From NCBI GenBank assembly GCA_965263035.1, contig OZ253580.1, positions 5,344,001 to 5,408,000 on the forward strand: a DNA stretch of 64,000 nucleotides, written 5' to 3'. The DNA comes from Acidobacteriota bacterium (GTDB taxonomy: Bacteria > Acidobacteriota > UBA6911 > RPQK01 > JAJDTT01). A program made the position numbers and the translations under genes. Positions 4,950 through 20,623 of this stretch are shown here, piece by piece (position 1 is the stretch's first letter; each line of letters begins with the position of its first letter). Below the pieces are notes generated by a model. That model did not search any database. It saw only the letters and a list, made by a program, of their open reading frames with translations, and had not been told where the DNA came from.

Positions 4950-5520
4950 CTACAACCCCAGGTCCTTAAGGTCACGGAGGCCAATTGCCTTCAGATCGAC
5001 ATTCCCTTCTTCGAGAGGATGGAGAGGGTCTAATTCGTAGTGTCTCTGAAACAAGTGAATCGTTTGACCGACAACTCGTGCGAGACTTCTCACTTGGGGG
5101 ATACGTTGCTGAGATTCATTTGCAGGCAGATCAAGCGCATCACCAAGAAGAATAGGGATGGTATCGAAGATAGTGAGCACGCTAGCAGCCGCATAGTGGT
5201 TCAAATCGCCTAGTCTTGGTAGTGCGGATTCAAAAACTCTTTTGCTGTTGACAGTCTCATATGCGGATCTTTCGTAGATTTTTCCTGGCCTCGATAATAT
5301 CGCGGCCAGAGCGACCAGTTTATTGTGGAGATCCGATCTGAGTAGCGAAGCAACTGCCTTTGCTTTAGCGCGGCGCCTTTCGGCCTGAAGCTTGCGAGCG
5401 TTCTTCATCGTCAAATAGGAGGAAAGGAACGCAGCACCCAAACCAATCACATACGGCCCCAGTGTCTTTAGGAAGTTGAGTATCGTTACGGCGCTTGGCG
5501 CTTGTCCCGGATCAGCCATT
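4950..5520 (-). CDS. Hypothetical cargo protein with one N-terminal TM helix (start uncertain; ORF open to 5672)
   Basis: Visibly AT-richer than the flanks. Hydrophobic YVIGLGAAFLSSYL followed by a basic helical segment. Confidence 0.6.
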
Positions 5521-5672
5521 TCAGACACTTCTAAGAGTAGCATGGCTACCAGCCTATCGATCCAGTGTGACACCCCCGGCGTGGTACTCTGGCGGGGCCT
5601 GGAGGCGTTATTCCGCTTGGTCCGTCTGGGAGTTTGGGCGGGAATCGTCAGGCTCACCAGGTCTCCAAGCAC

Positions 5673-6300
5673 CCCCGGAATTTATTCTGATGGCTCAGAA
5701 TCGCCGGGGAGCGGTCCTTCCAACGTGTGTCACCGGATTCTGGTAAACTGCACGGCAGAGTCGGGCAGGGAGCGACGGGCCACAATCACACGAGTCTCAT
5801 CCACTCGTGGCCAGGCACCCTGCCCTTTTTTCCCATCCACTGTCGTACCGTCCGTGATAAACTCCACAGCAGGATGAGGCTCGATCTCGCGGACCATTAC
5901 CAGATACCGCTCTCCAGTCTCGTCTTGCGTCCGTTTGCTGTGGGCTTATGCGCGGGCCGGACGCGATTTAAGACGATCTCCAACAGCGGGATCGGCGGTG
6001 CGGGACGGGACCTTCATACCGCACGCGGCAACCCCGAAGGAGCGGGCCAACCGGGCAACCGGCCCCGTTCTGGAGTCCAGGGCCGGAAGGGCGGGGAGTT
6101 CACAGCCTCCGCGGAAATGTGCTGGACTCCCGCTAGCAGGCGATCTCTGATCTAGCGGGTAGAAGATCTGCCAGGGAAAATCAGCGGGGTGGGTTCACGC
6201 GTACGCGCGCGAGGATCTGAATACCCCTCTGGTTTTTCCGATCCGCCGTAGGCGGGGAGGCCAAAGCAGATGGGGTTCCTACTTGCACCACACCCCTACC
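5673..6300. other. Hairpin-dense non-coding tract (candidate ncRNA and/or replication origin)
   Basis: Stems include GGGCAGGG/CCCTGCCC followed by T6 (5763-5831), GGAGTCCAG/CTGGACTCC (6072-6130) and CCCGCTAG/CTAGCGGG (6129-6159). No convincing ORF. Confidence 0.4.
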
Positions 6301-6414
6301 TAATCTTTAATTATCTTCAGTTTTGGTTTTAGGGGAAGAGAGAAAGTTAGAGGAGGAGTACCCATTACTACACCTTCCCGCCCCGCAGGGGTCTTACAGA
6401 CGAAATAGGAGGAA

Positions 6415-6702
6415 GTGATGCTACGAGGAAAGCGAACTCGATTTGCACTGTACGCGGTCACCGATGACCCGGATGTTCTGGTGGTGGATCGGAAAATGGC
6501 GGAGTGGATCGAGAAGCCCCCGCTTTGGACCTGGGACGACTTCCACGTCGTCGGGGTCTTCGAGTGCTCCGCCGATACTGCTATTGACTTGCTCAACGGC
6601 CAAGAGCTGATCTGTGGAGGATACGAGGAGAATCCGAATATCCCCGGCGTAGGGATCAAGACTATCTGGTCGCTCTGCGAAGTGCCTGACCCTGCTCGGT
6701 GA
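6415..6702 (+). CDS. Hypothetical protein (element)
   Basis: AGGAGG RBS upstream; 95-aa ORF with protein-like composition. Confidence 0.6.
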   Translation: MMLRGKRTRFALYAVTDDPDVLVVDRKMAEWIEKPPLWTWDDFHVVGVFECSADTAIDLLNGQELICGGYEENPNIPGVGIKTIWSLCEVPDPAR

Positions 6703-6756
6703 TTACACTTCTGATACCATGCCCCCGTTGGGTGTGGCCGACCCCCTCCTAAACTT

Positions 6757-6772
6757 CCCCCCCCCCCCCCCC
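6757..6772 (+). repeat. C16 homopolymer
   Basis: 16 consecutive C upstream of the morphogenesis operon. Confidence 0.85.
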
Positions 6773-6851
6773 AATCCCACCTTTGCTAGGCAATTTCGAC
6801 CCCCTGTATTTACGACTGAAATAGTCAGACCCTCCCTTCCATACTGCCTGC

Positions 6852-7100
6852 GTGACCGGATCTCGGACCTCTTACCGATTGATGATCAATGCTGAGTGGG
6901 ACGACGGACGTCCCTCGATCGACGTTTCTGTCCGGGAGATTCCAAGCGATGTCAGTCCTGCCGATGTCATCAAGCTGCTTCGCAACTGCTTGATCCTGGG
7001 TCCGCATCGTCTGGAATTCAGGGAATTGCAGGCGGGCGGTGCTTGCGGATTCCTAATCATAGGCTCCACCAAGCCACGGCGCGGGAGGCCCCCAAAATGA
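6852..7100 (+). CDS. Hypothetical protein with C-terminal AT-hook-like PRRGRPPK
   Basis: Stop codon overlaps the next ATG (ATGA at 7097-7100). Start uncertain. Confidence 0.45.
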   Translation: MTGSRTSYRLMINAEWDDGRPSIDVSVREIPSDVSPADVIKLLRNCLILGPHRLEFRELQAGGACGFLIIGSTKPRRGRPPK

Positions 7101-7345
7101 GGGCGCACAGATCCAGGCATCGCTGGGGACCGTCTCCTCTAAGCACCAGTTACTGGGCGGACATAGTACGTCCGGAGTGGGTGATCGCGTTGAAGCGCCA
7201 GAAGCTGGACGACACCATCCAACGGATGGCCTTGCCCTTCCTCGACAAAAACCGGCCGGGATCGCCGGGCCAGAAGTGCTCGGTTGACGCTGCATGGGAG
7301 ACGATTTTGCGGGCCAACGAGATCTACTTGAGGACTGGGCAATGA
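7097..7345 (+). CDS. Hypothetical protein (82 aa)
   Basis: GGGAGG RBS; ATGA overlaps at both ends. Confidence 0.6.
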   Translation: MRAHRSRHRWGPSPLSTSYWADIVRPEWVIALKRQKLDDTIQRMALPFLDKNRPGSPGQKCSVDAAWETILRANEIYLRTGQ

Positions 7346-7719
7346 CCATCAAGATCACCCTGCTCAACGAGCGGCAGATCCTCCAGGGCATCGACCAGTT
7401 GGAGACAGTCTTGGGCCGAGAGATGGTCACGGGCGTGAATCGAGCCACGAAGAAGATACTGTCCACCGCCAAGCGTAATGCTCCGGTAGATACGGGACAA
7501 CTTAGGGATAGCGGATCCAGAGATCCTGCTGCTGTGAAGAAGAGCGGGCTGGGTGGGACTTCTGTTGTAGGTGCTGTTGAATTTTCGGCTCCTTATGCTG
7601 TGGCCGTCGAGTACGGAAAAGGTCGAGGCAATCACTACTTGCGGTCGGCTATAGACAGGCACGAGGGTGGCCGGGATGACATCGCCGCCGCCATCGGGCG
7701 GGCAGTGGGGGCGGTATGA
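7342..7719 (+). CDS. HK97 gp10-family phage neck/tail-completion protein
   Basis: AKRNAPVDTGQLRDS, YAVAVEYG and YLRSA motifs. Confidence 0.8.
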   Translation: MTIKITLLNERQILQGIDQLETVLGREMVTGVNRATKKILSTAKRNAPVDTGQLRDSGSRDPAAVKKSGLGGTSVVGAVEFSAPYAVAVEYGKGRGNHYLRSAIDRHEGGRDDIAAAIGRAVGAV

Positions 7720-7816
7720 CGGCACCGGGGGCATGGGGAACCCCTGCTTCCCGTGATCCGGCCAGGGCGGCATACGTGGTGGGGGTCAGCCTTACGTCCG
7801 GCAAGAAGGATTCTGG

Positions 7817-9289
7817 ATGAGTTTGCAGACGAGAATCCTCCGATATTTGAAGGATCAGGCCGACCACCGGCTCTTGCCCTTCCACCGCGAGTTCATACGG
7901 GGCGCATACGATCCGAGCTGCCAGATCGCCGCTGCGAGCTATCCACGCGGCGCAGCGAAGACGTGGCTGTCGGCCCAGCTGCTCGCATGTTCCCTCAGAC
8001 CACGCTCCCCACTGTTCCGGGCCGGTATCGAGAATCTGGCGATTTCGGCCTCCTTGGAACAGTCGCGGGTCCTGGTGACGTTCGTCCGGCAGATCCTGGA
8101 GCCTTTGGGCGGATATGTTTTCGTCGATTCGAGCCAGCGATTGCAGGTCCGGCATAAGGCGACGAACACGAAATTGAGGGTGCTGAGTTCGAGTGGAAAG
8201 CGAGCACTCGGCCTCTCCCAATTCCAGGCGATTTATGGCGATGAGCCGGGATCGTGGGAATCGAGAAACGGCTTGCTGGTTTGGGATGCGTTGCGCACTT
8301 CATTGGGAAAACTTCCAGGACAGAAACTCATCCTGACCGGTACTCAGGCACCGGCTGATCTCGATTCATGGTGGCCCAATCTCCTTTCCCTGGGATCGGG
8401 ACCCGGGCGCTACGTCCAGGTGCTCGCTGCCGATCCATCCGAGCCCTGGGATGCGTGGCCAACCATCTACGGATGCAATCCCATGGTGTGGAGCAATCCG
8501 CACCTGAGAAAGACGATTTTGAGGGAGCGGGACGAGGCTCGGAAGGACGAAACGCTTAGGGCCTCCTTCAAGGCGTTCCGACTAAATCAGTTGGTGAACG
8601 TCAACGCCGACATGCTGCTCTCGGTGGCTGACTGGAAACGCGTCGAACAGCGTCCCGTTCCTCCACGGGAAGGCCGTCCGATCTGTGGCCTTGACCTCGG
8701 AGCGGAACGAAGTTGGTCCGCAGCCTTTTTGGTGTGGAAAAACGGGAGAAGCGAGTGCTACGCCCTCTGTCCTGGAATACCCAGCTTGTCTCGGAGAGAG
8801 CAGCAGGACGCACAACCCAGGGGTCTCTATCGGAGACTACATGCCGATGGGCATCTCTTGGTCGATGAGGGCCGCAGGGTCTCCCGTCCGAAGGTGTTGA
8901 CCGATCACCTCAAGAAGGTAGGCATCCGCCCCACGGTGGTCTTCTGCGACCGCTTCCAGCTCGGGACGCTGAAGGATGCCGTTACGTGGCCGATCCAGCC
9001 GCGAACGGCCCGATGGAGTGAAGCGACGGAAGACATTTCCTCGTTCCGGCGGATCGCCAAGGATGGACCCCTGGCCATCGAGAAGAAGTCCCGGCCACTG
9101 GCTCGGCTCGGACTGAGTCAGGCCACGGTCGAGACCGACTCCCAAGGTTCCATCCGCATGAAAAAACGGCGGGCGGACCGATCACGCGATGATGTGGCGG
9201 TCAGTGCCGTGCTGGCATCAGGCGGGCTCGTCCGGGCGCTGTCGCGTCCGCAGGCTCCACGGTGGAGATACCGGGGGCGAGTCCAATGA
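7817..9289 (+). CDS. terL: Phage terminase large subunit
   Basis: Walker A-like PRGAAKT, Walker B IYGDE, coupling motif LTGT, nuclease CGLDLG and C-terminal RDDVAVS. Confidence 0.85.
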   Translation: MSLQTRILRYLKDQADHRLLPFHREFIRGAYDPSCQIAAASYPRGAAKTWLSAQLLACSLRPRSPLFRAGIENLAISASLEQSRVLVTFVRQILEPLGGYVFVDSSQRLQVRHKATNTKLRVLSSSGKRALGLSQFQAIYGDEPGSWESRNGLLVWDALRTSLGKLPGQKLILTGTQAPADLDSWWPNLLSLGSGPGRYVQVLAADPSEPWDAWPTIYGCNPMVWSNPHLRKTILRERDEARKDETLRASFKAFRLNQLVNVNADMLLSVADWKRVEQRPVPPREGRPICGLDLGAERSWSAAFLVWKNGRSECYALCPGIPSLSRREQQDAQPRGLYRRLHADGHLLVDEGRRVSRPKVLTDHLKKVGIRPTVVFCDRFQLGTLKDAVTWPIQPRTARWSEATEDISSFRRIAKDGPLAIEKKSRPLARLGLSQATVETDSQGSIRMKKRRADRSRDDVAVSAVLASGGLVRALSRPQAPRWRYRGRVQ

Positions 9290-9573
9290 GGCGTCCTGGG
9301 GATCTTTCCAGTAGGCAGCTGGTCCGGACCAGGAGACGGTTGTGGGCCGAGCAGAAGTCCCGGTGCGGGAAGTGCGCCCGTCTGACCCGGCTCCAGGATA
9401 TGGAACTGCATCATAGGAAGATGCTTCGAGACGGCGGCACCAATGATCCGGGCAACCTGATTTTGTGGTGCAAGCCGTGCCATACGGAAGAAACACGATT
9501 CCAGAACACCTCTGCCGAGATTCGTGACGAGGCTCGGCGGTGGCGTCAATTCCTAACAGGAGAAAGAGCATGA
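9286..9573 (+). CDS. HNH endonuclease (phage packaging-associated)
   Basis: CGKC...HH...GG..D.GNL..WCKPCH; ATGA overlaps at both ends. Confidence 0.9.
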   Translation: MRRPGDLSSRQLVRTRRRLWAEQKSRCGKCARLTRLQDMELHHRKMLRDGGTNDPGNLILWCKPCHTEETRFQNTSAEIRDEARRWRQFLTGERA

Positions 9574-10778
9574 CCACGAAACAGAAATTGGAGTTGAGGC
9601 GTTCGGAACTTCGCTCCCGGCTGGCGGAGATCGCCGGTTTGGACAAACTGACGGATGAGGTCCGCACCGAGTCGAAACAGCTCGAAAGCGAGTTTGCAGA
9701 CTTGGAGACGAAATACCGCGCCGCCTTGCTTTCCGAGCAGGAGAAGGAGACCCGTGCGGCTGTCGATGATCCCGGCGGCGAGCAGAAGGCGCTCAGGCGG
9801 TTGCTGGAACGTGCCAATGTCGGCACGAAACTGGTGTCCATCGTCGAGGGGCGGTCGGTCGCCGGTGCGGAGGCGGAGGTGGATCAACATTTCAAGATCG
9901 AGGGTGATGGGCTGGCCATCGACTACCTTCGGGAGACCCGAGCCGTAACTCCCGGTCCGGCGGATGTCGGAGCCGTGCAGCAGCCCATCATCGGCCAGAT
10001 CTTCCCGGATGGAGTGGCCAGCTTCCTGGGTGTCTCGATGCCCACGGTCGGAGTCGGAGAGCAGACCTACACCGTCCTGACCACCGGCGCGGACGTGCGG
10101 ACCCCGGCAGAGAATGCCGCCGCAGCCGAGACCACCGGCGCATTCACGGCCAGCGTCTTGGCTCCCAAACGGGCGCAGGCGTCATTTTTCTGGAGCATCG
10201 AGGACGAGGCGAGGCTGGCGGGGATGGAAGCGGCACTCCGGCAGAATCTCCGGATGGCGTTGTCCAGCAAGTTCGACAACCTGTTGCTGAACGACACCAC
10301 GGCTGGATTGCTGGAAGGTGGTCTCACTCAGGCCGGCGATCCCTCATCCCAAGCGGATTACGGCGCTTACAAGTCGTCGGTCGTCAATCAGGTTGACGGG
10401 AAATTTGCGTCCATGCCGGATCAGGTTCGGCTGGTACTTGGCGCCAAAACTTACCAGCACGCCGACGGCCAATATCGAGGGACGACCTCGAACTGGAGCT
10501 CGGACGATTCCGGCTTCGAGGCGATCCAGAGAAAGTCCGGCGGCGTCCGGGTGTCCGATCATGTACCGGACCCGGCGTCCAACATCCAGAAGGCCGTGGC
10601 CGCTCGCCGGATCAACGCCATGCACGCCGTCATGCCGCTCTGGAGAAGGTTAACCGTGATTCCGGATCGCGTGACCAAGGCCAGCGCCGGGCAGGTTCTG
10701 GTAACGGTGGTGGCACTTTGGGCGCTGAAGGTGCTGCGCGCGGATGGATTCCAGGCGCTGAAATTCAAGCTGGCTTGA
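9570..10778 (+). CDS. Phage major capsid protein (HK97 fold, N-terminal delta/scaffold domain)
   Basis: Coiled-coil N-terminus, AEN...T and L...LR.ALSSKFD.LLL backbone-helix pattern, about 400 aa, module context. Confidence 0.8.
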   Translation: MTTKQKLELRRSELRSRLAEIAGLDKLTDEVRTESKQLESEFADLETKYRAALLSEQEKETRAAVDDPGGEQKALRRLLERANVGTKLVSIVEGRSVAGAEAEVDQHFKIEGDGLAIDYLRETRAVTPGPADVGAVQQPIIGQIFPDGVASFLGVSMPTVGVGEQTYTVLTTGADVRTPAENAAAAETTGAFTASVLAPKRAQASFFWSIEDEARLAGMEAALRQNLRMALSSKFDNLLLNDTTAGLLEGGLTQAGDPSSQADYGAYKSSVVNQVDGKFASMPDQVRLVLGAKTYQHADGQYRGTTSNWSSDDSGFEAIQRKSGGVRVSDHVPDPASNIQKAVAARRINAMHAVMPLWRRLTVIPDRVTKASAGQVLVTVVALWALKVLRADGFQALKFKLA

Positions 10779-10781
10779 GCG

Positions 10782-11207
10782 ATGCCAATCACAATTCTGC
10801 GAGGTCCAGCGGGAGCGGGGAAGTCACAATATCTGGAGGAAAATCTCCAGCCTGGTGAAATCACTATCGACATTACCCCGCTCCACGTGGCCCTCAATCA
10901 CCCCGTTTTGCGGCGAGGACCGGACGGCAAGTATCCGATCCGTCAGCCGGACGATCTGAGCCTGAACCTGGCCCGGATCGCCAAGCGGTTCCTGGTGGGA
11001 CGGGCGGAGGCGCTGGGCGTGAGTGGGTACGTGACCACCTCCGATTCCAGCCCGGAGGAGATCGAGAAGATCCGGGGTTGGGGAGCGACAGGTCGGGTTG
11101 TGACCGTTGACCCTGGCGAGGCCGTCGTTCGGCGCAGGCTGGCGGACTCGACCGGCGAGGTGCCCGACGCTTGTGAAGACTCGATTGTCCGGTGGTACAG
11201 CGTATGA
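10782..11207 (+). CDS. Small P-loop NTPase/kinase-like (AAA_33-like)
   Basis: ITILRGPAGAGKS Walker A. Confidence 0.75.
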   Translation: MPITILRGPAGAGKSQYLEENLQPGEITIDITPLHVALNHPVLRRGPDGKYPIRQPDDLSLNLARIAKRFLVGRAEALGVSGYVTTSDSSPEEIEKIRGWGATGRVVTVDPGEAVVRRRLADSTGEVPDACEDSIVRWYSV

Positions 11208-11656
11208 GAATCGTTGCGCGCGTTGAAATCCGGGAGGCGAAGGGCGTCAAGCGGTTGGAGCTGACCCTGATTCAGGAGGGTCGGGCAGCCGCCGGTGGAC
11301 GCGCGGAAGTATTCGCCCCAGGGTCTCTTTCCTGGCCCGATGAGGGAGTAGCAATTCGCTCCGTCCACCTGGGTCCCGCCATAGGCAGAGCCCATCCAGC
11401 ACGAAGGCCCGATGGGCGAATCCAGATTTCCACCAAGGCCAACGCAGCCATGGTCAAGGCCGTCGAGGTGGAAGGCAAGCGGGGCGCCAGTGTCGAGTTT
11501 GTCCCCATTCGGCAAACCACGACGCAGGGGGGTGTGACGGAGGTTCGGCGGGCCTTCGTCGATGGTGTCGCACTGGTGGTCAATCCGGAGTACTCACAGG
11601 GCCGGGCCGAGATCCGAAGCCGTGAGAAGGGGAGGAGCATCTTGTGGCGACTCTGA
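11204..11656 (+). CDS. HK97-type prohead protease-like protein
   Basis: EVFAPGSL, conserved His (SVH), GASVEF serine motif and GVALVVNPEY. Confidence 0.7.
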   Translation: MRIVARVEIREAKGVKRLELTLIQEGRAAAGGRAEVFAPGSLSWPDEGVAIRSVHLGPAIGRAHPARRPDGRIQISTKANAAMVKAVEVEGKRGASVEFVPIRQTTTQGGVTEVRRAFVDGVALVVNPEYSQGRAEIRSREKGRSILWRL

Positions 11657-12030
11657 GCCCGTGGCCCACGGACAGCGGACCAGCTCTGGACGAGATCCGG
11701 CGGCATCTGTACGCCCACGAGCTGGCGGGGGTTGACGACTCCCCAGACATGGTTCTGGAACTTCTGGGAGCGGCGAGTGCGGCCCTGGTCGAGAAATACG
11801 CTCCTGCCGCTCCGGCGGTGATCAAGAATCTTTCAGTGATCAGATGCGTCCAGTATCTCGTCGCACGTTCGGGCGGCAATCCTAGCCAGACGATCGAGTC
11901 CCTGGGCGACTACTCCGGCACCCGCGAGTTCGCGCCCTCTATGATCTCCTGTCTCCGCCATTCCGGAGCAATGGCCGTATTGAGTCCCTTCAAGATCAGG
12001 CGAGCCCGGCCGTGTGAGGTTTCCGAATGA
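11644..12030 (+). CDS. Putative head-tail connector/adaptor (gp6-like)
   Basis: GGAGGAG RBS. Helical pattern LLGAASAALVEKY..P..IK...IR.V.YL, then ESLGDYS and LSPFK. Confidence 0.55.
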   Translation: MATLSPWPTDSGPALDEIRRHLYAHELAGVDDSPDMVLELLGAASAALVEKYAPAAPAVIKNLSVIRCVQYLVARSGGNPSQTIESLGDYSGTREFAPSMISCLRHSGAMAVLSPFKIRRARPCEVSE

Positions 12031-13103
12031 GGTGGCAAGGCCGGGAAATCAGCATCGGACGCCGTGAGACCCGATCCGTTGGGTACACGGACCGGCTCAC
12101 CCAGTTGCTTATCTCGCAATCCACAACCGTGACCGAAACCGATCCTTCCCGGACTGCCGCTCTGGAGATCTGCGCCGGGATCTGGGGCCGCGCCTTCGCA
12201 AGCGCGAAACCGGAACCAGAAGCGGCAGCTCAGGTGCTCACCCCGTCCGTCTTGAACATGGTGGGGCGCGAGTTGATCCGGAAAGGTGAGATCCTGTTCC
12301 GGATATCCGTGGCGGACGGGCGGCGTGTCCTGACTCCGGCGAGTGCCTGGGACGTGACCGGCGGTTCGGACCCCTCCTCTTGGCAATTCGTCGCCTCCTT
12401 CTCCGGACCCGATACCGAGAGTGAGGCTACGCTCGATTGGGCTGAGACCGCGTTGTTGACCTGGGCCGTGGAGCCCGGACAGCCATTTAAGGGCCTGGGA
12501 CCGCTTGAAGTGGCCGATCTGACCGGGAGCTTATGCGGGAGCTTGGAGAAGAGCCTGAGCGACGAGGCGGCGACGCCACACGGATTCCTGATGCCGGTCC
12601 CGCAGGCCGACGAGGTGGACGATGATGAGGTCGATCCGCTAGCCGAGATGCGGGCGGATTTGAAGCAGCTGAACGGCGGCCTGAGTTTGGTAGAAACTAC
12701 GTATGGCGGCCACGGCGAAGGCCGTGGTGCTGCCCCTCAAAAGGACTGGGTGCCGAGTCGGCTCGGGCCTGCTGTTCCAGATTCCTTATGCAAGCTCCGG
12801 GAGGACGTACACCGTTCGGTCCTGAGCGCCTGCGGGATCTCCCCGGCGATGGTCGGCGGGCGTTCGGACGGAACTGCAAGGAGAGAAGCCTACAGAACCT
12901 TTGCTCACCTGAGCTTGACCCCAGTGGGCCGGATGGTCTCGGCTGAACTGGCCGACAAGCTGGACATCCCGGACCTGAAATTCGACTGGTCGGCGTTGAT
13001 GGCTGGAGACATCACCGGCAAGGCGCGGGCGTTCGCCAGTCTGGTCAAATCCGGCATGGACGTAACGAAAGCCGCCAGCCTCTCGGGGCTGATGGTGGAA
13101 TGA
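12027..13103 (+). CDS. Phage portal protein
   Basis: ELIRKGE, FKGLGPL, V..ACGISPAMVG and L.P....ELADKL portal-like motifs. Confidence 0.8.
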   Translation: MRWQGREISIGRRETRSVGYTDRLTQLLISQSTTVTETDPSRTAALEICAGIWGRAFASAKPEPEAAAQVLTPSVLNMVGRELIRKGEILFRISVADGRRVLTPASAWDVTGGSDPSSWQFVASFSGPDTESEATLDWAETALLTWAVEPGQPFKGLGPLEVADLTGSLCGSLEKSLSDEAATPHGFLMPVPQADEVDDDEVDPLAEMRADLKQLNGGLSLVETTYGGHGEGRGAAPQKDWVPSRLGPAVPDSLCKLREDVHRSVLSACGISPAMVGGRSDGTARREAYRTFAHLSLTPVGRMVSAELADKLDIPDLKFDWSALMAGDITGKARAFASLVKSGMDVTKAASLSGLMVE

Positions 13104-13110
13104 CGATAAA

Positions 13111-13421
13111 CCCGCAGACCAGGACAGGACGCTGGCAGCGGGCCTCTCGGTGAAACCTTTGGTTTTGTTAGGCCGAGAGGGAAACAGCCGAGCCCATTCG
13201 GTTCGGCTGGACGGTTGCCGGTGTTCAATTCCGCCGGTTGCCGCAGTCGGGGTTATGAGTTCGCCCCGGCGTCTTTGGGGCCGGTTTCTTACAGGGTTCC
13301 CGGCCCCACCTTCCTCCACCCCACACGCAAGGGTCCCAGTAGGGTCGTTGGGCCATCGGCTGCACACCGAAGCTGGACCTCACCCTCCGTCCGCTACCGA
13401 TTGCTCGGCCCTGGATGGCCC
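13111..13421. other. Tandem stem-loop array between the convergent portal and integrase genes (terminators or candidate ncRNA)
   Basis: Six back-to-back hairpins at 13111-13308 plus longer-range pairings at 13341-13421. Confidence 0.5.
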
Positions 13422-13467
13422 CGGATCGTCTGGCCGCGCCTACCCATACCTACCATCCTCCACACGC

Positions 13468-14565
13468 TCAGGCGCTCTTGACGGAGCGGAGTTGTGGGCG
13501 CTTGTCCAGGTATTGCAGGATGCCGTCCCGCTCGGAGTCTTCGGTCCCGACGTAGTGGGCGCACATGGAGGCGGACTTCCACCTGAGTATTCTTTGCACG
13601 CGTTGCAGGGGCATCCCGGAGGCTGTCAACTCCATGGCGAGTCCCCGGCGCAGTCCGTGGAATCTGACCCGGCCCGGAGAGGGCAGCCCCGCCTTCTTGG
13701 CCCATTTCTTGATCTGTAGTTGGATCTGATTCGTCCGAAGTCCGTCCGGCTGGACCCCACCGTTGATCACCTTCCGGAACAGGGGACCGTCGTCGATCCC
13801 GGCCACGTCCATCCAGCGCTGAATCCGCTTGGCGGTGCGGGACCGGACGATCTGCACGGCTCCGACCCCGGCCTGGTCCGTTTTGCTGGATCTGATCGTG
13901 ATCCGGGCATGACCCTCCGGCCGGAAATCCACGTCCTGGACCTGGAGCGCGGCAATTTCGCCGACTCTCAGCCCACCATCAAAGGCGGCGTAGAACATGG
14001 CGGCGTCCCTGAGTCCCCATAGGCTGAAGGCAGCGTCACACGCGGACACCAGCTGCTCCAGTTGGGACTCCCGTAGTCCCGGTGCTTGTCCCCGTCCCCG
14101 TCCCCGTCCCTTGGCGGAAATCTTCTTCATCGCATTCTTGACGTGACGGCCCGTGGGAATCGGCTGATCCATGGCTATGGCCCGGAACCGTGCGGCGAGC
14201 ACCACGTTCTTGAGCGTCGGCGGGGATGCCTTGCGGCGCAGCTTCGCCAGCCGGTACTTACCGTTGGCCTTGCGATATCTCCGGTGGATCGTAATCTGGC
14301 CGTTGTGTCGGAGCAGGAGATACCGGGAAAGTGTCACGTCCGTGAGTTCCCGGCCCGTCTCCTCCAGCCACCTGTCCAGGTGCCGGAGAGCGCTTTGGTA
14401 CTGCTTGCGGGTGGAATCCGCGACGGACATCCAGGCCATCTCCATCCCAAAGTCGGGCGCGGATTCCTCCGGGATCTCGATCAGGTCCGGGTCGGGTTCG
14501 GGCGACTGGCTCTGTTTGGGCATCGCGAACACCACGTTTTGAAATTGCGAGTTGACTCCGAGCAC
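13468..14565 (-). CDS. int: Tyrosine recombinase/integrase, Cre-like
   Basis: AAGGAGG RBS. Catalytic GLRVGE, SKTDQ, HGLRRG, LRW (Trp as in Cre) and AHY. Lies ~100 bp from attR. Confidence 0.92.
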   Translation of the reverse strand: MLGVNSQFQNVVFAMPKQSQSPEPDPDLIEIPEESAPDFGMEMAWMSVADSTRKQYQSALRHLDRWLEETGRELTDVTLSRYLLLRHNGQITIHRRYRKANGKYRLAKLRRKASPPTLKNVVLAARFRAIAMDQPIPTGRHVKNAMKKISAKGRGRGRGQAPGLRESQLEQLVSACDAAFSLWGLRDAAMFYAAFDGGLRVGEIAALQVQDVDFRPEGHARITIRSSKTDQAGVGAVQIVRSRTAKRIQRWMDVAGIDDGPLFRKVINGGVQPDGLRTNQIQLQIKKWAKKAGLPSPGRVRFHGLRRGLAMELTASGMPLQRVQRILRWKSASMCAHYVGTEDSERDGILQYLDKRPQLRSVKSA

Positions 14566-14660
14566 GGCGTAACCTCCTTGGCTCTAGTGCCAACCCTCTA
14601 CCCTCCTCTTTCGCAAGTTGCGCGGCGATCGATAGATAAAAATGCTGTCGCCGGTAATCC

Positions 14661-14666
14661 TTGAAG
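14661..14666 (+). repeat. attR core (TTGAAG)
   Basis: Second copy of the core, from which the SSS frame resumes LKLYTLSEYLERRY. Confidence 0.85.
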
Positions 14667-16289
14667 CTCTACACCCTCTCCGAATATCTGGAGCGCCGCT
14701 ACGATCAGCGCAGCCGCGCCGCCTACGCCGTCATTCTGGTCATCACCATGGCCGTGGTCCAACTGGTTCCGGCGCTCTACATCGGCGCCCGTTCCAGTTG
14801 CGTGCTCATGGGCGGAGCCGCGCTCGAGGTGATCGGTTCGGAATCGATTCCCGGAGAGATAGTGGACGCGGAGCCGGGATCGGGCGATTCGTCGGAGGCG
14901 CCGGCCAAGTCGAAGCTGGGCGTGAACCGTTTTCACTACAGCATCTTCGTTCTGATCCTGGCCGCTATCGCCACCAGCTACACCATCTTCGGCGGACTCA
15001 AGGCGGTGATCTGGACGGACGTGATCCAGTCGGTCCTGCTTCTGCTGGGCGGCATCCTCCTGGCGACCCTCACCTTTGACCGGCTGGGAGGTTGGAGTGC
15101 CCTGATGGAACTGGATCGAGCGGGTTCCGGCAAGATGCGCCTCTATTTGCCCAGCGATCATCCCGATCTGCCCTGGACCGGTGTCCTGACCGGTCTGATG
15201 GCGCTGCATATCTTCTATTGGGGGACGAACCAGTTCATCGTCCAGCGTGCACTGAGTGCCCGGAGCGACTCGCAAGCGCGTCTGGGAATCGTAGCGGCCG
15301 GGTTCCTCAAATTGCTGATCCCGTTCTTCTCCATCGCCAGCGGAGTGGCGGCCTTCTATCTCTTCCAGTCCGAGCTGCCGAATCGTTCCGTGGCCCCCGA
15401 TACCGCTTTCACCGAGTTGATCGTTCTGGTGATCCGGCCCCTCGGATTCGGACTCATCGGCGTGATCTCGGCCGGCGCCGTGGGAGCCATCCTGTCCTCC
15501 ATCGATTCCATGATGAACTCGGCCGCCACCATCGTCAGCATGGACCTCTACCGCCGGTACCTCAATCCTCAGGCCAGCGACGCCCAGATGATCCGGGTGG
15601 GACGATGGTCCATCCTGGGGTTAGTCTCGCTCGCCAGCCTGTTCGCTCTTTTCGTCATCGATCCCAACTCGGAAAAGAATTTCTTCCTGCAGATCGTCGA
15701 CTATCAGAGCTACCTCACGCCCGGGCTCCTGGTGGTCTTCCTGCTGGGGCTGTTCTGGCGGCGGACGACACCCACCGCGGCTTTTGTCACCATCTTCCTT
15801 GGCGTTTTCTATTCCTGGGTCGTGGAGTGGATCTACCTCGCGCACTTGGCACACTTACCCGGGGTGGCGTCGTTGACAGGGGAGGTGCTCAACTTCTTTC
15901 ACCGGGTCCTCGTGGTCGTGGTGCTGTGCACGTTGACGGCCGTCTTGGTGAGCCGCTTGGGCAGCTGCCCCGAGGAAAAAGCGAAGCTGACGTGGTCCGG
16001 CGTGCTCAACGTTTCAACGGAGGCAGTCAGGAATCTGCTCCTGGGACTGGCGGTATGGTTTGGAGTCCTGGTGGCCCTGGCCGCGGCTGTGGCCGGAGGC
16101 CGTCTGGCACCGGAGTCCGCGGCCGTTCTTGCTTCGGTCCTGACCCTGGGAATGTTCTGGATGCTGCTGAGGCGCCGCGCCCGGAGCCGGGGGCCCGCGA
16201 GTTTCGTGTCCTGGGTCATTCGCGAAGACCGATTCTGGGCCGGATGCCTCTGTGCGGCCGTCGTCTTCTTTCTCTTCTATTTCTATTGA
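14661..16289 (+). pseudogene. Sodium:solute symporter, 3' part (intact frame)
   Basis: YTLSEYLERRY, YTIFGGLKAVIWTDVIQ, YWGTNQFIVQRAL, SSIDSMMNS. Continues the 4461-4769 fragment exactly. Confidence 0.9.
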
Positions 16290-16359
16290 TCCGGACTCCG
16301 GACGCTTGCGGGAGGACGGACCCCGGTATCTGTTCGCGCCGGGAAATCTCTCGCGCTTA

Positions 16360-16416
16360 GCAGTCCGCCGGGATGCAGGGACGGTCGAATGCCGTGGCGA
16401 CTTTTGCCATGGGCTG
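16360..16416 (-). repeat. Partial copy of the 160-bp MITE-like repeat
   Basis: Reverse complement CAGCCCATGGCAAAAGTCGCCACGGCATTCGACCGTCCCTGCATCCCGGCGGACTGC matches the start of the 48692 copy. Confidence 0.85.
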
Positions 16417-17250
16417 TTAGGCCGCCCCATTGGTCTGTTTCCGGACGGCTCGCCGGATCCCGGCCCGGAGCAGCGACGGAAACAGGAGTTTGAACAGCGG
16501 GAGGAATCCCATGGCTCTGGGGATGTAGAGGTTCCCCCCCGGTCCCGGAAGCGAGTTCACAATTCGGCGGGAGCACTCCCGGACGCTCACGCCTCGCTCA
16601 CGCCGGGACCGATGTGCAGAGGATCCCAAGGGTGACCCGTCTGCGGAAAGGGCGCTAGCTCGGATTCCGGTGTTCCGGATCCATCCCGGCATCACATTCA
16701 AAATCCGGACTTCTCCGTGCAACTCGGTCCGCAGCGTCTCCAGGAGACCGTCCAAGGCGTGCTTGCTGGCGGTGTACCCGCTGTGAAACGGCACGCCGAC
16801 GCGGCCTTGGACGGAGGAGATGGCCACGATCATTCCTTGGTGCTCTTTCAAAGGCGCGAGAGCGGGGTGGATGCAGTGGACGGCGCCCAGGTAGTTCACT
16901 TCCATGAGCGTCCTGAAGATGTCGGTGTTGCGAACCTGGTCGAAGAGCGTCCACATGCTCACGCCGGCGCTGAGGATGAGATAGTCCAGAGTTCCGAATT
17001 CCGCGGTCACCGCCGATACCGTTTCACGGCATTGCCGGGCGTCGGTCACGTCGGTGGGAACAACGAGGCAGTCGGCTCCGATTCGCCGGACGCCGGCGGC
17101 CGTGTCAGCGAGGGTCCGCTCCGAGCGGGAAGCCAATCCCAGGCTCAATCCCTGGGCGGCCAGATCAAGGGCCAGTCTTTTCCCCAGCCCTGAGGAAGCG
17201 CCGGTGATGAGGGCCGTCTTGCCCTGGAGTTTGGAGTTCCGGTTTGGCAT
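16417..17250 (-). CDS. SDR oxidoreductase, DHRS7B/PexRAP-like
   Basis: TGASSGLG, MEVNYLG and IVAISSVQG...PFHSGYTASKHA (YxxxK). Confidence 0.85.
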   Translation of the reverse strand: MPNRNSKLQGKTALITGASSGLGKRLALDLAAQGLSLGLASRSERTLADTAAGVRRIGADCLVVPTDVTDARQCRETVSAVTAEFGTLDYLILSAGVSMWTLFDQVRNTDIFRTLMEVNYLGAVHCIHPALAPLKEHQGMIVAISSVQGRVGVPFHSGYTASKHALDGLLETLRTELHGEVRILNVMPGWIRNTGIRASALSADGSPLGSSAHRSRRERGVSVRECSRRIVNSLPGPGGNLYIPRAMGFLPLFKLLFPSLLRAGIRRAVRKQTNGAA

Positions 17251-17302
17251 GGATCAGCTGGTGCCGTGTCTCGTCCTGGCGCCGTCGCGCGCTTGTCGTT
17301 AA

Positions 17303-19063
17303 TCAGTCACCCAGGACGTTGTTTCGAATGCCGAAGATGTTGTGCGGATCGGTGGCCCGTTTGATCTCTTTCAGGAGCCGAATACCGCGGGAAGAGAGAG
17401 TATGTTTCATGAAATCACTACGGAGTTTTCCGACTCCGTGGTGGTGGGAAATGGACCCGCCCGCGTCGATGATGGACTGGCGTAGCGAGTGCTCGACCTG
17501 GCTGAAGATCGTTTCCGGGTCCCGCACCCCCTTGGCGTAGAAGCCGAACATGAAGTAAATGCAGACTCCCGTGTGGTAGACCTGGGTGATTCGATAGGAG
17601 ACGTAGGGCCGTCCCGGCAGGTCCAGTTCCTGGTGTCTGGCCAGAGCTCCAGCCACGACGGCGTCGCAGACCTGGTGGATGCGGTCCCAGGACACCGAGG
17701 TCTCGAACGTCTCTCCCAGAATGTGGAAATCCGACAGAAAGTCCCGGATGTAGGCGATGGCGAAGGTGAGCCGATAGCCGCGGCGCCCGTTTTCGGCTCC
17801 GCCCGGCAGACCTCCGTACTTCTTGGCCAGCTTGTAGAGGCCGCTCTCCTGAAAGGAGACCTCTTCGTGGGACCCTTCCATGAGGATGGTCGCGGCGGAC
17901 ATCTGATGGGGATCGAATCCCTTGACCTTGAGCAAAAAGAATTTCTTCAGCTTGTCCAACCAAGCCGCCGATCCGGTGGCCCTTGGCTTGAGCGCCTGGC
18001 CGAAACGGAATTGGACGTTGTCCACCAGACGGATGCTGGCAGGTACATAACTGGTTTCAGCCAGGCTCCGAAGGAAGGAAACCCCCTTGGCAAAGTCGGG
18101 AAAGACGAGGGAGCCGTACTTGCGGACCTGGGGCAGGGGATGGATCTTGATGACGGCGCTGGTGATGAGGCCCAGGTTGCCTTCGCTCCCAAAGAAAAGA
18201 TTCTGGGGCTGCATCCCCATGGAGACCCGCGGTGACGCCGTCAGATGCTCAACCCGGCCGGTGGGTGTGATCAGCATCACTTTTTCGACGATATCCTCGA
18301 TGTTGCCGTATCGATTTTTCTTCATGCCGCTGGCATGGGTGGCGATCCATCCGCCGAGAGTCGAGAGTTCGATGCTGTCGGGCTCGTGGCCGGAGACGTA
18401 ACCGGCCTCGCCGAGCCGGCGTTCCAGTTCCTCACCCGTGATTCCCGCCTGGACCAGGGCCCGTTGGTTCTCGCGATCGATCCACTCGACGCGATTCATC
18501 CGGCTCATGTCCACTGAAACGATCATGCGTTTTTCAGAAGCGGGAAGCTTCAGGGCACAACTGACGCTGGTGCCGCCTCCGTAGGGAACGAGGCAGACGT
18601 CGTTGGTCCGGGCCAGTGCCACCAGCATCGCGCAGTCCTTTTCCGCTTCGGGGTAGACGACCATGTCGGCGACGCGGTCGAGCCGGGAGTAGATGACCCG
18701 GAAGACTTCGTCGGCACTGGTCTGGCCGTGACTGTGGACCAGTCTCTCTCGATCGTCGAAGGTGAATTGGTTGGGACGGTAATACGTTGGCAGACGCCGG
18801 CAGAACCGGCCATTTTTAATGGGAGCGGGAACCGGTTTGGGGTTGACCTCCTGACGCTTTTCTTTGAAATCGGGATCGAGTCCCAGGACTTCTCTCACAT
18901 AGGGGAGGAAGTCGTGCATCTTGTATCCGCACAGTTCGTATCGATTACCGGTGAGCATCACGGAGTCGTCGTCGTTGCGGACGAATCGGGTGTCGGCAAA
19001 TCCCCAACGGTGTCCCCAAGTCGGATCGGTGCTCCGGCTGGCCATCACTATTTTCCGTTCCAT
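17303..19063 (-). CDS. Alkyl-dihydroxyacetonephosphate synthase (AGPS)-like FAD-linked enzyme
   Basis: GHEPDS.ELSTLGGW.AT.ASGMKKNRYGNIED, GSEGNLG, PASIRLVDN.QF.FGQALKP, GETFETS, C.YF and SHHHGVGKLR. Confidence 0.9.
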   Translation of the reverse strand: MERKIVMASRSTDPTWGHRWGFADTRFVRNDDDSVMLTGNRYELCGYKMHDFLPYVREVLGLDPDFKEKRQEVNPKPVPAPIKNGRFCRRLPTYYRPNQFTFDDRERLVHSHGQTSADEVFRVIYSRLDRVADMVVYPEAEKDCAMLVALARTNDVCLVPYGGGTSVSCALKLPASEKRMIVSVDMSRMNRVEWIDRENQRALVQAGITGEELERRLGEAGYVSGHEPDSIELSTLGGWIATHASGMKKNRYGNIEDIVEKVMLITPTGRVEHLTASPRVSMGMQPQNLFFGSEGNLGLITSAVIKIHPLPQVRKYGSLVFPDFAKGVSFLRSLAETSYVPASIRLVDNVQFRFGQALKPRATGSAAWLDKLKKFFLLKVKGFDPHQMSAATILMEGSHEEVSFQESGLYKLAKKYGGLPGGAENGRRGYRLTFAIAYIRDFLSDFHILGETFETSVSWDRIHQVCDAVVAGALARHQELDLPGRPYVSYRITQVYHTGVCIYFMFGFYAKGVRDPETIFSQVEHSLRQSIIDAGGSISHHHGVGKLRSDFMKHTLSSRGIRLLKEIKRATDPHNIFGIRNNVLGD

Positions 19064-19257
19064 TCGGTTTGCCCGGTCATTCGCCGAAGGACGCCAGCGG
19101 ATCGGGACGCCGATTCCGGTGTTTCCAAGTGTGATTGTTCACACTGAACGGGTGATGCGCAACTCCGGGCGTGTCGTTTCAGGAGAGACGGCCGGCATTC
19201 CACAGCAAAAACACTGCGACCGTCCGCAAAGCGGCCGGTTTGCCCAGCGCCGTCCGT

Positions 19258-20124
19258 TCAACGGACGAATCGGAACCGAACTTCCCGGCGGGAGTGCGCC
19301 TGCCACCAGGTCTGGAAGTCATCAGAGGGTCGAATCTCCAGGTTGAGGATACGGGCGCGAAGGGTGACTGTCAGCGGGTGCTGATCGAAGGGGTACGGGT
19401 CGATGACGACTCGGAATTCGGCCGCCGGACGGACCCTGAGCGAGACTCGATCGTTCCAGCTCGTGCGCGGAATCTCGCGGAGGGTTCGTTCCTTGTCTCC
19501 GCCGAAGCAGAGGTGGAGCGAGAGGGCGTCGCAGAGTTGCAGAAGGCGGAGGTGGGGGTACAGGTGCCACGGCTCGACGGCGGCGGCCCATTCGGGATCG
19601 CCTTTGATGCGATCCACGAGGAGCTCCTGCAGGACATGTTGTTCGGCAACGAACTGCTTGGCTTCTTCCAGCTCTCCACCGTCGGGTGAAGGCCAATCAG
19701 CAGGGCTGCCGAAGAGCGGGTGGAGGAACTCGGGTGAGTCCTCGGCTTGGACGCGGGGCGCGTGCAGCCAGTAGGCGTGCAAGCTGATGAGTAGCGCGAC
19801 GTAGGGATGGTCGCCCCCGAAGCGGGATACGCCCAGGCTCCAGCGTTGGAGACCGTCGGAATGCCTGAGGCTCATCAGATCCAAAGGGAGGCCGTCGGCG
19901 GGGTCGATCCGAGGGTCGGCCTCCCATTCCCACCAACCGTTGTCGTGCTCGGCGATGGCGAGGACGCTTTCGGCTCGCAGCCGTTCGGGATCGGGACAGG
20001 GTGCGAATCGGCCGGGGCGGGCGAATTCGTCGTTGCCCCAGTGAGCGGCCAGGTAACCGGCGGCGGCGGCGTGGTCGGGCTGCGAGATGCACCACAGTTC
20101 GTCGCCGACCGTGCGTTTCAGCAT
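19258..20124 (-). CDS. DUF3891 family protein
   Basis: ISQPDHA..AG.LA.HW, AIAEHDNGW, YVALLISLH and LQLCDALSL. Confidence 0.75.
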   Translation of the reverse strand: MLKRTVGDELWCISQPDHAAAAGYLAAHWGNDEFARPGRFAPCPDPERLRAESVLAIAEHDNGWWEWEADPRIDPADGLPLDLMSLRHSDGLQRWSLGVSRFGGDHPYVALLISLHAYWLHAPRVQAEDSPEFLHPLFGSPADWPSPDGGELEEAKQFVAEQHVLQELLVDRIKGDPEWAAAVEPWHLYPHLRLLQLCDALSLHLCFGGDKERTLREIPRTSWNDRVSLRVRPAAEFRVVIDPYPFDQHPLTVTLRARILNLEIRPSDDFQTWWQAHSRREVRFRFVR

Positions 20125-20160
20125 GGTTCCTCGGAACGGGTGATTCTCAACTCTGGGGGA

Positions 20161-20364
20161 TCAGGGTCTTGAGAGGCGGCCGGCCTTCCACAGTAGGAAG
20201 GTTGCCGTCGCCAGCAGAAACACGGTCAACAGCAGCTTCACCTCCCACAACGCGTAGGTGTAGTAAAAGGAAGCCAGCAGCAGGACGCCCACCAGTAACA
20301 GGAGCCATCCGCTGTAACGGTATTCGCCACGCAGTTTCCGCCGCTGGTTCTCTCCGGTTTCCAT
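20161..20364 (-). CDS. Small two-TM membrane protein
   Basis: Two hydrophobic segments. The ORF-track extension to 20406 reaches the edge of the repeat. Confidence 0.55.
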   Translation of the reverse strand: METGENQRRKLRGEYRYSGWLLLLVGVLLLASFYYTYALWEVKLLLTVFLLATATFLLWKAGRLSRP

Positions 20365-20408
20365 GTCTCTGGGAGCGTAGCAGCCTGAGGCCCAAGTCTC
20401 CACCACAC

Positions 20409-20568
20409 CAGCCCGTGGCGAAAGTCGTCACGGCATTCGACCGTCCCTGCATCGTGCGCGGACTGCGTTGCTATCGGCTCACATACTCCCGGTGTGCTCC
20501 CTCCGTTGCGCCTTGTCCGGCGGGCGCAGGACCGGTCTCGGTGCTCGCGGGACTTTCACCACGGACTG
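20409..20568 (+). repeat. 160-bp MITE-like/ERIC-like element, full copy 1
   Basis: Terminal inverted repeats CAGCCCGTGGCGAAAGTC / GACTTTCACCACGGACTG. Near-identical to 48692-48850. Confidence 0.9.
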
Positions 20569-20623
20569 GTACAGCCGGCGACGGCAGGTTGGCGCTGGTT
20601 ACCGGAACCAGGATTCCTCGGGG

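Follow-up and report, generated by a model that had tools for sequence, protein, structure and literature searches.

A conserved gene pair for alkyl-DHAP synthase and a short-chain dehydrogenase in an Acidobacteriota genome: a probable DHAP route to bacterial ether glycerolipids

The question raised by this locus is whether two adjacent genes of an uncultured Acidobacteriota bacterium encode consecutive steps by which ether lipids are synthesized, and whether they are as eukaryote-like as they appeared at first sight. The locus lies in a stretch of 64,000 nucleotides (nt), referred to here as the window, which corresponds to positions 5344001-5408000 of a single-contig genome (6.198 Mb, 97% complete) whose nearest named relatives are Acidobacteriota metagenome-assembled genomes (MAGs). 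One gene codes for a FAD enzyme, alkyl-dihydroxyacetonephosphate synthase (AGPS), and the next one for a short-chain dehydrogenase/reductase (SDR). Bacterial non-isoprenoid ether lipids bear on the 'lipid divide', on sediment biomarkers and on the unexplained abundance of ether lipids in sponges, and the locus represents a clean, minimal and conserved AGPS-reductase pair in an Acidobacteriota lineage associated with sponge metatranscriptomes. We estimate a probability of about 0.7 that the pair carries out consecutive steps of the dihydroxyacetone phosphate (DHAP), or peroxisome-type, route to ether glycerolipids, with substrates made elsewhere in the genome and saturated alkyl lipids as products. 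A first-pass annotation, made from the letters alone, had described two co-oriented open reading frames (ORFs) 52 bp apart, and its coordinates, co-orientation and spacer all agreed with the features as mapped here:

17303..19063, minus strand: gene for AGPS (alkyl-dihydroxyacetonephosphate or alkylglycerone-phosphate synthase, EC 2.5.1.26), 586 amino acids from the first ATG; assigned from the ORF, its translation, and Pfam and PDB matches
17251..17302, minus strand: spacer from the AGPS stop to the SDR start codon, 52 nt, read from the sequence
16417..17250, minus strand: gene for a classical SDR, candidate NADPH-dependent 1-alkyl-DHAP reductase, 277 amino acids; assigned from Pfam adh_short and the linkage to AGPS

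The spacer is exactly 52 nt long, bounded by the TGA of the AGPS gene at 17305-17303 and the ATG of the SDR gene at 17250. Database relatives of AGPS that are 580 amino acids long start at the second methionine (residue 7), among them P0006, which is 99% identical to the window protein. The motifs that had been quoted for the FAD enzyme (GHEPDS, ASGMKKNRYGNIED, PASIRLVDNVQFRFGQALKP, AYIRD and SHHHGVGKLR) and for the SDR (IVAISSVQGRVGVPFHSGYTASKHA) were all found in the translations. Pfam recognized the VAO/PCMH-type FAD-binding domain, FAD_binding_4 (PF01565), at residues 133-274 (E 5.5e-35) and the cap domain, FAD-oxidase_C (PF02913), at residues 310-577 (E 1e-36). The best PDB match found by phmmer was the guinea-pig peroxisomal AGPS 4bby (E 9.4e-165, 552.9 bits, residues 15-581 on residues 92-656 of the chain) and the second was the Dictyostelium AGPS 2uuu (E 2.9e-86); the next family in the search, D-lactate dehydrogenase, matched at E 9.6e-22 (80.7 bits) over residues 132-351 only. 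The alignment to the animal enzyme begins at residue 15 and includes the AGPS-specific N-terminal part, whereas alignments to other FAD oxidases do not begin before about residue 130. Identity to guinea-pig AGPS was about 45%, or 257 of 567 aligned columns by a hand count on the phmmer alignment. The positions associated with catalysis are kept: the Tyr in CIYF, the Arg in PASIRL, the Arg in AYIRD, and SHHHG, which aligns with the HHH loop of 4bby that we take to be a functional site of AGPS. At the positions altered in the PDB mutants 4bca (Tyr to Phe) and 4bc7 (Arg to His), the window protein has the wild-type Tyr and Arg. An Arg/Tyr/Arg triad of the Dictyostelium enzyme is described as important for catalysis in a figure legend of a review (PMC3509576), which presents the mechanism as a non-redox exchange through a flavin-DHAP adduct. 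A generic oxidase of the GlcD/YgcU type, the assignment that the first-pass annotation had named as refuting its reading, was ruled out: the NCBIfam equivalog model for GlcD gave 144.7 bits, far below its cut-off of 567.9, as compared to the 552.9 bits of the AGPS match. There is a single AGPS in the genome, the next-best match being 30% identical over part of its length. By these sequence criteria the FAD enzyme is a true AGPS, as had been annotated, and it is predicted to exchange the acyl group of acyl-DHAP for a fatty alcohol.

The distribution of the pair was assessed in a scan of one genome per prokaryotic species, which returned 569 stretches with AGPS relatives. The 80 loci considered here are the best 80 of these 569; they are 56-91% identical to the window AGPS and come from Acidobacteriota, Fidelibacterota (Marinimicrobia), Chloroflexota, Cyanobacteriota, Poribacteria, Deinococcota and other phyla. 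At least 900 nt downstream of AGPS were available in 75 of the 80 loci, and an SDR was counted when it started within 400 nt on the same strand. An SDR was present in 38 of the 75: 25/27 in Acidobacteriota, 8/8 in Fidelibacterota, 1/1 in Poribacteria, 1/1 in Deinococcota, 2/2 in unclassified loci and 1/7 in Cyanobacteriota; it was found in none of the loci from Chloroflexota (0/24), Pseudomonadota (0/3) and two other phyla (0/2). After one cyanobacterial case was dropped, an SDR of the orthologous type remained in 37/75 loci, spread over at least four phyla. When the phylum was sampled evenly, AGPS matched at E <= 1e-60 in 12 of 200 other Acidobacteriota genomes, namely in 4/4 of the same genus, 6/11 of the rest of the order and two outside the order (one of them at just 30% identity). 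The trait is thus patchy and concentrated in this order. All four AGPS-bearing genomes of the order that were searched have a full-length SDR orthologue (45-51% identity) 18-67 nt after AGPS, and none of five AGPS-lacking relatives (four from this order plus one from the same class) has one, their best match being 32% identical over residues 8-198. The SDR therefore comes and goes with AGPS among these relatives. An orthologue was not found in the more distant AGPS-bearing genome G125, whose AGPS is 49% identical.

Public RNA libraries also contain the locus. At least part of the stretch was found in 17 public runs, eight of which are recorded as RNA and come from two studies; four metatranscriptomes of one study contained 71-86% of the sampled words and four runs labelled 'sponge metagenome' contained 22-27%. 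Contigs at 95-100% identity covered AGPS and SDR in 4/4 RNA runs examined from the two studies, and in two of three runs of one study contigs crossed the 52-nt spacer (X1 record 6, 17107-19109; X3 record 22, 16876-19104). This supports the presence of both genes in RNA libraries and is no proof of an operon transcript.

No acyltransferase or fatty acyl reductase (FAR) is encoded in the window, as had been noted: none of the seven PF07993 and five PF01553 matches in the genome falls inside it. Likewise, no FAR or acyltransferase was found within 6 kb of AGPS in the 27 Acidobacteriota loci counted. Other bacteria have fuller operons. In Planktothrix (L024, 228-10110) an AMP-binding-ACAD-carrier-reductase megaprotein is followed by a small acyltransferase, AGPS, SDR, a CdsA-type cytidylyltransferase and a CDP-alcohol phosphatidyltransferase. 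In Poribacteria (L069, 1767-8592) an ElbD-like protein with the order FAR-AMP-binding-carrier-acyltransferase precedes AGPS and SDR, and in Fidelibacterota (L077, 4056-9411) the order is HMG-CoA reductase (HMGR)-like protein, acyltransferase, AGPS, SDR, SDR. In all of these layouts the reduction of alkyl-DHAP alone has no other candidate and the SDR directly follows AGPS; the SDR is most likely an alkyl-DHAP reductase, a role for which it becomes a concrete bacterial candidate. The conserved adjacency, the presence and absence in relatives and the position in the fuller operons indicate that the SDR is functionally tied to AGPS.

Several features of these operons deserve mention in their own right. 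The HMGR-like gene stands before acyltransferase-AGPS-SDR in Fidelibacterota, in a Trueperaceae MAG and in others (cluster c3, 12 ORFs, of which that of L077 was scanned by Pfam). According to PMC11948995, this type of enzyme has been characterized as the fatty acyl-CoA reductase FcrA, and its authors noted AGPS genes in FcrA-bearing genomes. Some Fidelibacterota operons (L076, L077) have two SDRs after AGPS. The CdsA-type cytidylyltransferase and the CDP-alcohol phosphatidyltransferase are additions seen in the cyanobacteria-type clusters (L024 and six others), five of which also have an ORF of cluster c9 (Pfam identifies the L036 member of this cluster as a fatty-acid desaturase). One locus of the cyanobacterial type carries the label 'Rhizobium sp.' but groups with cyanobacteria in both trees described below. 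In G112, an Acidobacteriota genome of the same order (L101:2673-10821), an orthologue of the ElbD-like gene described below shares the strand of AGPS-SDR and is found about 1 kb upstream of the pair, with a lipoprotein-like ORF in between. The presence of ElbD beside AGPS-SDR in L069 and G112 suggests that the ElbD and AGPS routes can be a single pathway in some bacteria; in Myxococcus xanthus they are treated as alternatives. The Anaerolineae-type loci of Chloroflexota (L045:2280-8589 and six others) have an AGPS and no SDR neighbour. In L045 the AGPS is preceded by a thiolase and a FadB-like hydratase/dehydrogenase, and all seven loci have a conserved 257-amino acid ORF after AGPS, the L045 member of which has no Pfam family.

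The AGPS identity, the conserved linkage of the SDR and the fuller operons make the DHAP route to alkyl-glycerol lipids, as initially proposed, the best reading of the locus. In the proposed pathway, AGPS, a FAD enzyme that would act with no net redox change and no need for oxygen, swaps 1-acyl-DHAP's acyl chain for a fatty alcohol and would yield 1-O-alkyl-DHAP. The SDR would then reduce the C2 ketone of this product, probably with NADPH, to 1-O-alkyl-sn-glycerol-3-phosphate, which could enter ordinary phospholipid assembly. The fatty alcohol and the acyl-DHAP would most plausibly come from a single ElbD-like protein of 1456 amino acids encoded about 2.5 Mb away, at genome positions 2855789-2860159. 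It is the only FAR-Sterile-AMP-binding-PP-binding-Acyltransferase protein in the genome, with NAD_binding_4 at residues 15-356, Sterile at 450-533, AMP-binding at 562-968, PP-binding at 1138-1203 and Acyltransferase at 1255-1388. The 'Sterile' C-terminal domain marks alcohol-forming FARs, and the domain content makes this protein a plausible supplier of both substrates. The candidate for a stand-alone PlsB/GNPAT, an 810-amino acid acyltransferase at genome position 5.72 Mb, was rejected as LplT-Aas-type. For PEDS1/CarF (PF10520) there was no match in the genome, a weak blank considering that the control search found it in 0/14 reference genomes. Should the gene really be missing, saturated alkyl (plasmanyl) lipids would be expected as products in place of plasmalogens. 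What the data establish is the identity of the genes, their kept catalytic positions, the linkage and the occurrence in RNA libraries, from which the activities, the substrate of the SDR, the origin of the substrates and the final lipids are inferred.

The SDR itself was examined at the level of family, residues and fold. It matched Pfam adh_short (E 7.1e-45), and also adh_short_C2 and KR but not PF01370, and it scored above the cut-off of the NCBIfam model NF004825 (PRK06181; 252.1 bits vs 215), whose name, 'SDR family oxidoreductase', is uninformative. It contains TGASSGLG (the TGxxxGxG cofactor motif) and YTASK, which are generic to classical SDRs. Residues R42, N119, Y159 and K163, the last three from the catalytic Asn-Ser-Tyr-Lys set, are invariant across 29 AGPS-linked SDRs. 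An Arg after strand 2 is typical of NADP(H) use by SDRs, and the cofactor is probably NADPH because the invariant Arg42 occupies this place. An AlphaFold model built on the 29 AGPS-linked SDRs (predicted local distance difference test score, pLDDT, 92) placed two helices, 245-256 and 258-274, in a C-terminal tail whose basic-hydrophobic, amphipathic character is conserved in AGPS-linked SDRs. Such a tail would fit an enzyme acting at the membrane surface; DHRS7B, in contrast, is anchored at its N terminus. The solved folds nearest to the model were clavulanate dehydrogenase and then many entries of the lipid-handling 11beta-HSD1, together with HSD17B13. Sequence matches in the PDB were weak and mixed (clavulanate dehydrogenase, FabG and 11beta-HSD1, 1e-21 to 1e-23), and an ESM Atlas sequence search returned generic bacterial SDR clusters only. 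The best paralogue in the same genome was 37% identical over part of its length. A search among longer proteins found nematode 'DHRS7-like' proteins (P0324, P0326) at 32-37% identity and a plant 11beta-HSD1-like protein at 37%. No fusion of the SDR to AGPS (PF01565/PF02913) was seen among the 120 listed of 184 longer-protein matches, which is weak evidence.

A quick tree of 51 SDR rows, in which the comparison rows were picked by similarity to the query and the grouping is biased accordingly, contained one clade, with a Shimodaira-Hasegawa-like approximate likelihood ratio test (SH-aLRT) support of 96, in which the window SDR is joined by 21 further AGPS-linked SDRs of Acidobacteriota, Fidelibacterota, Poribacteria and Deinococcota origin. 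This clade has no specific sister and falls in a poorly ordered group (SH-aLRT 91) together with DHRS7-like proteins, a plant 11beta-HSD1-like protein and SDR domains from bacterial FAR-SDR fusions; four SDR paralogues from the same genome lie outside the group. The description of the SDR as a DHRS7B/PexRAP-like reductase (EC 1.1.1.101) therefore needs to be divided. A classical SDR tied to AGPS by context stands. A specific kinship with DHRS7B is neither supported nor contradicted by this small tree, which gives no sister relation, and the motif that was said to resemble DHRS7B is the generic Ser-Tyr-Lys signature of classical SDRs.

Several observations weigh against the proposed pathway. 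The SDR is as near to the SDR domains of FAR-SDR fusions of about 590 amino acids from bacteria (P0305-P0313, 37-42% identity) and to fungal A-T-R-SDR proteins (32-38%) as it is to DHRS7-like proteins, so the sequence does not single out a ketone on DHAP; in both kinds of fusion the SDR domain presumably reduces an aldehyde. The SDRs of the cyanobacterial AGPS clusters are a separate lineage, and the Chloroflexota loci, as noted above, have no SDR. The ElbD-like protein is found in 5/5 AGPS-bearing genomes and, full-length, in 5/5 AGPS-lacking genomes of the same order (4/4 without the unpublished G049); as it occurs equally with and without AGPS, the co-occurrence argument for a specific partnership was rejected. 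RNA-library contigs may contain DNA, and a contig over two genes is not equivalent to one transcript. No report on the enzyme activity of bacterial AGPS-linked SDRs was found in the literature searched. In M. xanthus, disruption of the AGPS gene lowered ether lipids only slightly according to PMC9131029, and by analogy bacterial AGPS may be a minor route. A sponge-symbiont preprint (bioRxiv 10.64898/2026.06.23.733905) states that no short-chain plasmalogens were found in sponges and suggests that the bacterial agps was possibly unexpressed at the time of sampling.

The first of these points can be taken further. AGPS could act as proposed and the SDR serve as a fatty-aldehyde reductase replenishing the fatty alcohol, the alkyl-DHAP being reduced by another, unlinked enzyme. 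This arrangement would account for the similarity of the SDR to domains of NAD_binding_4-bearing proteins (P0305-P0313) and to the fungal A-T-R-SDR proteins, and for the fact that the fusion domains occupy the same loosely structured tree group. The SDR also matches NCBIfam PRK07201 at positions 365-541 of its 657, a profile that was used for the acyl-CoA reductase AcrB in the FcrA paper (PMC11948995), and the two SDRs after AGPS in L076 and L077 leave room for both roles. However, the SDR follows AGPS and not the reductase gene, and in Acidobacteriota the pair lies apart from the only FAR-bearing gene. The SDR is missing from all five AGPS-lacking relatives even though at least four of the same order retain the ElbD-like FAR, and the 'Sterile' domain of that FAR means that a separate aldehyde reductase is not needed. 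The FcrA of the Fidelibacterota-type operon, for its part, makes the alcohol directly (PMC11948995). An aldehyde-reducing role of the SDR is considered unlikely.

A different departure from the proposed pathway concerns the fate of its product. The pair could work as described and its product be channelled, instead of into bulk membrane phospholipids, into ether lipids with a neutral or signalling character (alkylglycerols, alkyl-diacylglycerols) or into a small pool formed under particular conditions. M. xanthus has a minor AGPS route and a neutral alkyl-diacylglycerol among its ether lipids (PMC9131029). Presence in 12/200 genomes suits an accessory trait better than one at the core of the membrane, and outside the genus neither a CdsA nor a head-group gene is conserved next to the pair. 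On the other hand, the CdsA-type and CDP-alcohol transferase genes after AGPS-SDR in the cyanobacterial operons point to phospholipids there, and nothing in this genome directly favours neutral lipids; such a diversion appears improbable. That the AGPS homologue has another substrate, or is a decaying, non-functional acquisition with a merely historical SDR adjacency, is highly improbable: a mobile element at a distance of 2 kb and the dispersed repeat on the sides of the block speak for it, but the frame is intact, the catalytic positions are kept, relatives across phyla show 56-91% identity, the synteny holds in 4/4 same-genus genomes and RNA-library contigs extend over both genes.

The proposed DHAP route can be compared with the systems already described. 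The AGPS-FARAT-reductase operon and the ElbD pathway of M. xanthus are known (PMC9131029; PMC13012113). The window shares with that operon a bacterial AGPS homologous to the animal enzyme, a neighbouring nucleotide-dependent reductase, a presumed DHAP route and an ElbD-type enzyme elsewhere in the genome. It differs in that a FAR-acyltransferase fusion (FARAT) stands beside AGPS in M. xanthus and none is found in the window, in that the reductase there belongs to the epimerase/dehydratase family (extended SDR) and the one here is a classical SDR (adh_short, PRK06181-type), and in that no PEDS1/CarF was found here, which would leave out the plasmalogen step. The myxobacterial ElbD pathway (Lorenzen et al. 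2014, as summarised in PMC9131029) has its counterpart in one protein with the order FAR, acyl-activating, carrier and acyltransferase; this protein, however, is encoded 2.5 Mb from AGPS-SDR, occurs also in AGPS-lacking relatives and is not specifically coupled to the pair. With animal AGPS and DHRS7B (PexRAP)/DHRS7 the pair would share two consecutive reactions, and it shares the catalytic positions and a classical-SDR reductase (PMC9131029; PMC13200781). Unlike the animal enzymes, the window pair is bacterial, is encoded as a putative operon and lacks the peroxisomal targeting extension, the animal AGPS chain starting 77 residues earlier; the window SDR differs from DHRS7B by its C-terminal amphipathic tail. 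The Fidelibacterota-type operon has the same AGPS clade, SDR clade, gene order and tight spacing, but there an alcohol-forming reductase and an acyltransferase are adjacent, and the window lineage keeps the last two genes only. Bacterial agps has been reported widely. BLAST searches of the water column of the Black Sea detected homologues in many phyla, and some Acidobacteria carry elb or agps (PMC11868695); agps was also described in MAGs of sponge Poribacteria, Acidobacteriota and Latescibacterota in the preprint mentioned above (10.64898/2026.06.23.733905). This picture is unchanged by our results. A description of an AGPS-linked classical SDR was not found in the literature searched on bacterial ether lipids, on AGPS residues or on DHRS7B/PexRAP in bacteria. 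The modest novelty lies in this partner, in its strict co-occurrence with AGPS and in the minimal two-gene layout of this lineage.

The remaining part of the question is whether the locus is eukaryote-like. A large protein collection contained 5943 scored AGPS relatives, and the top 120 of these, all 60-99% identical, were named 'FAD-binding oxidoreductase' (NCBI) or 'alkyldihydroxyacetonephosphate synthase' (JGI). At E <= 1e-30 there were 930 representatives of 50%-identity clusters, among which four nameable eukaryotes were present: Pharyngomonas (45% identical), Lagenidium, Chromera and Acaulospora. A maximum-likelihood tree, computed quickly on 81 rows (the window protein, 59 representatives of full length, 15 named bacterial loci and six distant outgroup rows; SH-aLRT support only), placed the window AGPS with Acidobacteriota in a 13-row clade (SH-aLRT 95) inside a 69-row group (99). 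All four named eukaryotic sequences lie outside that group, without clear order at the base of the tree. A recent transfer from a eukaryotic host was rejected on this ground; the tree suffices against such a transfer and not for the origin of eukaryotic AGPS, and a 2026 PNAS study considered AGPS sequences to be without sufficient phylogenetic signal (PMC13012113). The label 'eukaryote-like' was overstated: the nearest relatives are bacterial, at 56-91% identity vs about 45% for the animal enzyme, and the window AGPS is nested among bacteria. As far as sequence comparison can tell, it is no more eukaryote-like than other bacterial AGPS. A bolder proposal, which we regard as doubtful, is that the clade of classical SDRs following AGPS is the bacterial acyl/alkyl-DHAP reductase and also the sister or source of eukaryotic DHRS7B/DHRS7. 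If this were true, a bacterial origin would also apply to the reduction step by which animals make ether lipids, possibly in a lineage other than myxobacteria, which have a reductase of another family in their operon; the 2026 study that traced FAR, GNPAT and PEDS1 to myxobacteria left out the reductase step (PMC13012113).

Metagenomic proteins that combine AGPS with other domains in a single chain were also observed. P0145 (2247 amino acids) has the order acyl-CoA-binding, aminotransferase-like, fatty-acyl reductase, acyltransferase and AGPS, and P0198 (2146 amino acids) resembles it without the acyl-CoA-binding match. In P0127 (810 amino acids, from a Gammaproteobacteria MAG) and P0146 (1324 amino acids) an acyltransferase is fused to AGPS. 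About 20 AGPS representatives longer than 1000 amino acids fall in two clades of the AGPS tree.

In the neighbourhood of the pair, the minus-strand segment 20624-22939 upstream of AGPS encodes a weak CDP-alcohol phosphatidyltransferase (25.5 bits by Pfam; 35 bits vs a cut-off of 180 with the archaetidylinositol-phosphate-synthase model), a GtrA-like membrane protein and a 296-amino acid ORF without family, which come after a Ser/Thr kinase gene. All three are present in 5/7 loci at about 90% AGPS identity, their synteny among the 80 loci being limited to near relatives, and a link to lipid head groups is possible. DUF3891, located between these genes and AGPS, occurs in the seven loci whose AGPS is about 90% identical and in none of the others among the 80. 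DUF3891, GtrA and the CDP-alcohol transferase were dropped as parts of the system because the synteny is confined to the genus. On the other side, a sodium:solute symporter gene beside the SDR (window 4461-16289) is interrupted by an insertion of about 9.9 kb (about 4768-14661), its first 107 codons being at 4461-4781 and the remainder at 14658-16286; the relative L001 has an intact gene of 643 amino acids. The insert is an integrated phage-like element, as judged from a tyrosine integrase gene (13468-14565, minus strand), an ORF resembling a portal protein (12027-13103) and another with a weak likeness to a capsid protein (9540-10778). Its ends showed no clear direct repeats.

The segment 19188-19341, between DUF3891 and AGPS, was covered by no run, and the contigs of one study end at 19066-19109. 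This could hint at a separate transcript start, with the proviso that a gap in contig cover, from one study only, proves nothing. A promoter and terminator scan of 16000-20600 was uninformative (one promoter-like and five terminator-like sites vs 0.5 and 3.6 expected from shuffles), and Rfam had no match at E <= 1 in 16200-16500. A 57-nt dispersed repeat begins directly after the SDR stop (16360-16416, plus strand), with further copies at 20409-20453 and 48692-48748, both on the minus strand, so that the DUF3891-AGPS-SDR block has a copy on each side, the two being oppositely oriented. The repeat has no Rfam match and its fold is no more stable than that of shuffles (z 0.29). There are 170 blastn matches to it in the genome on both strands, 56 of which are at least 50 nt long at 91-98% identity. 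In RNA-library contigs the bin holding the repeat had a word depth of 2404-3396 vs about 8-19 in the bins next to it, and the edge of the repeat is a point where many contigs diverge.

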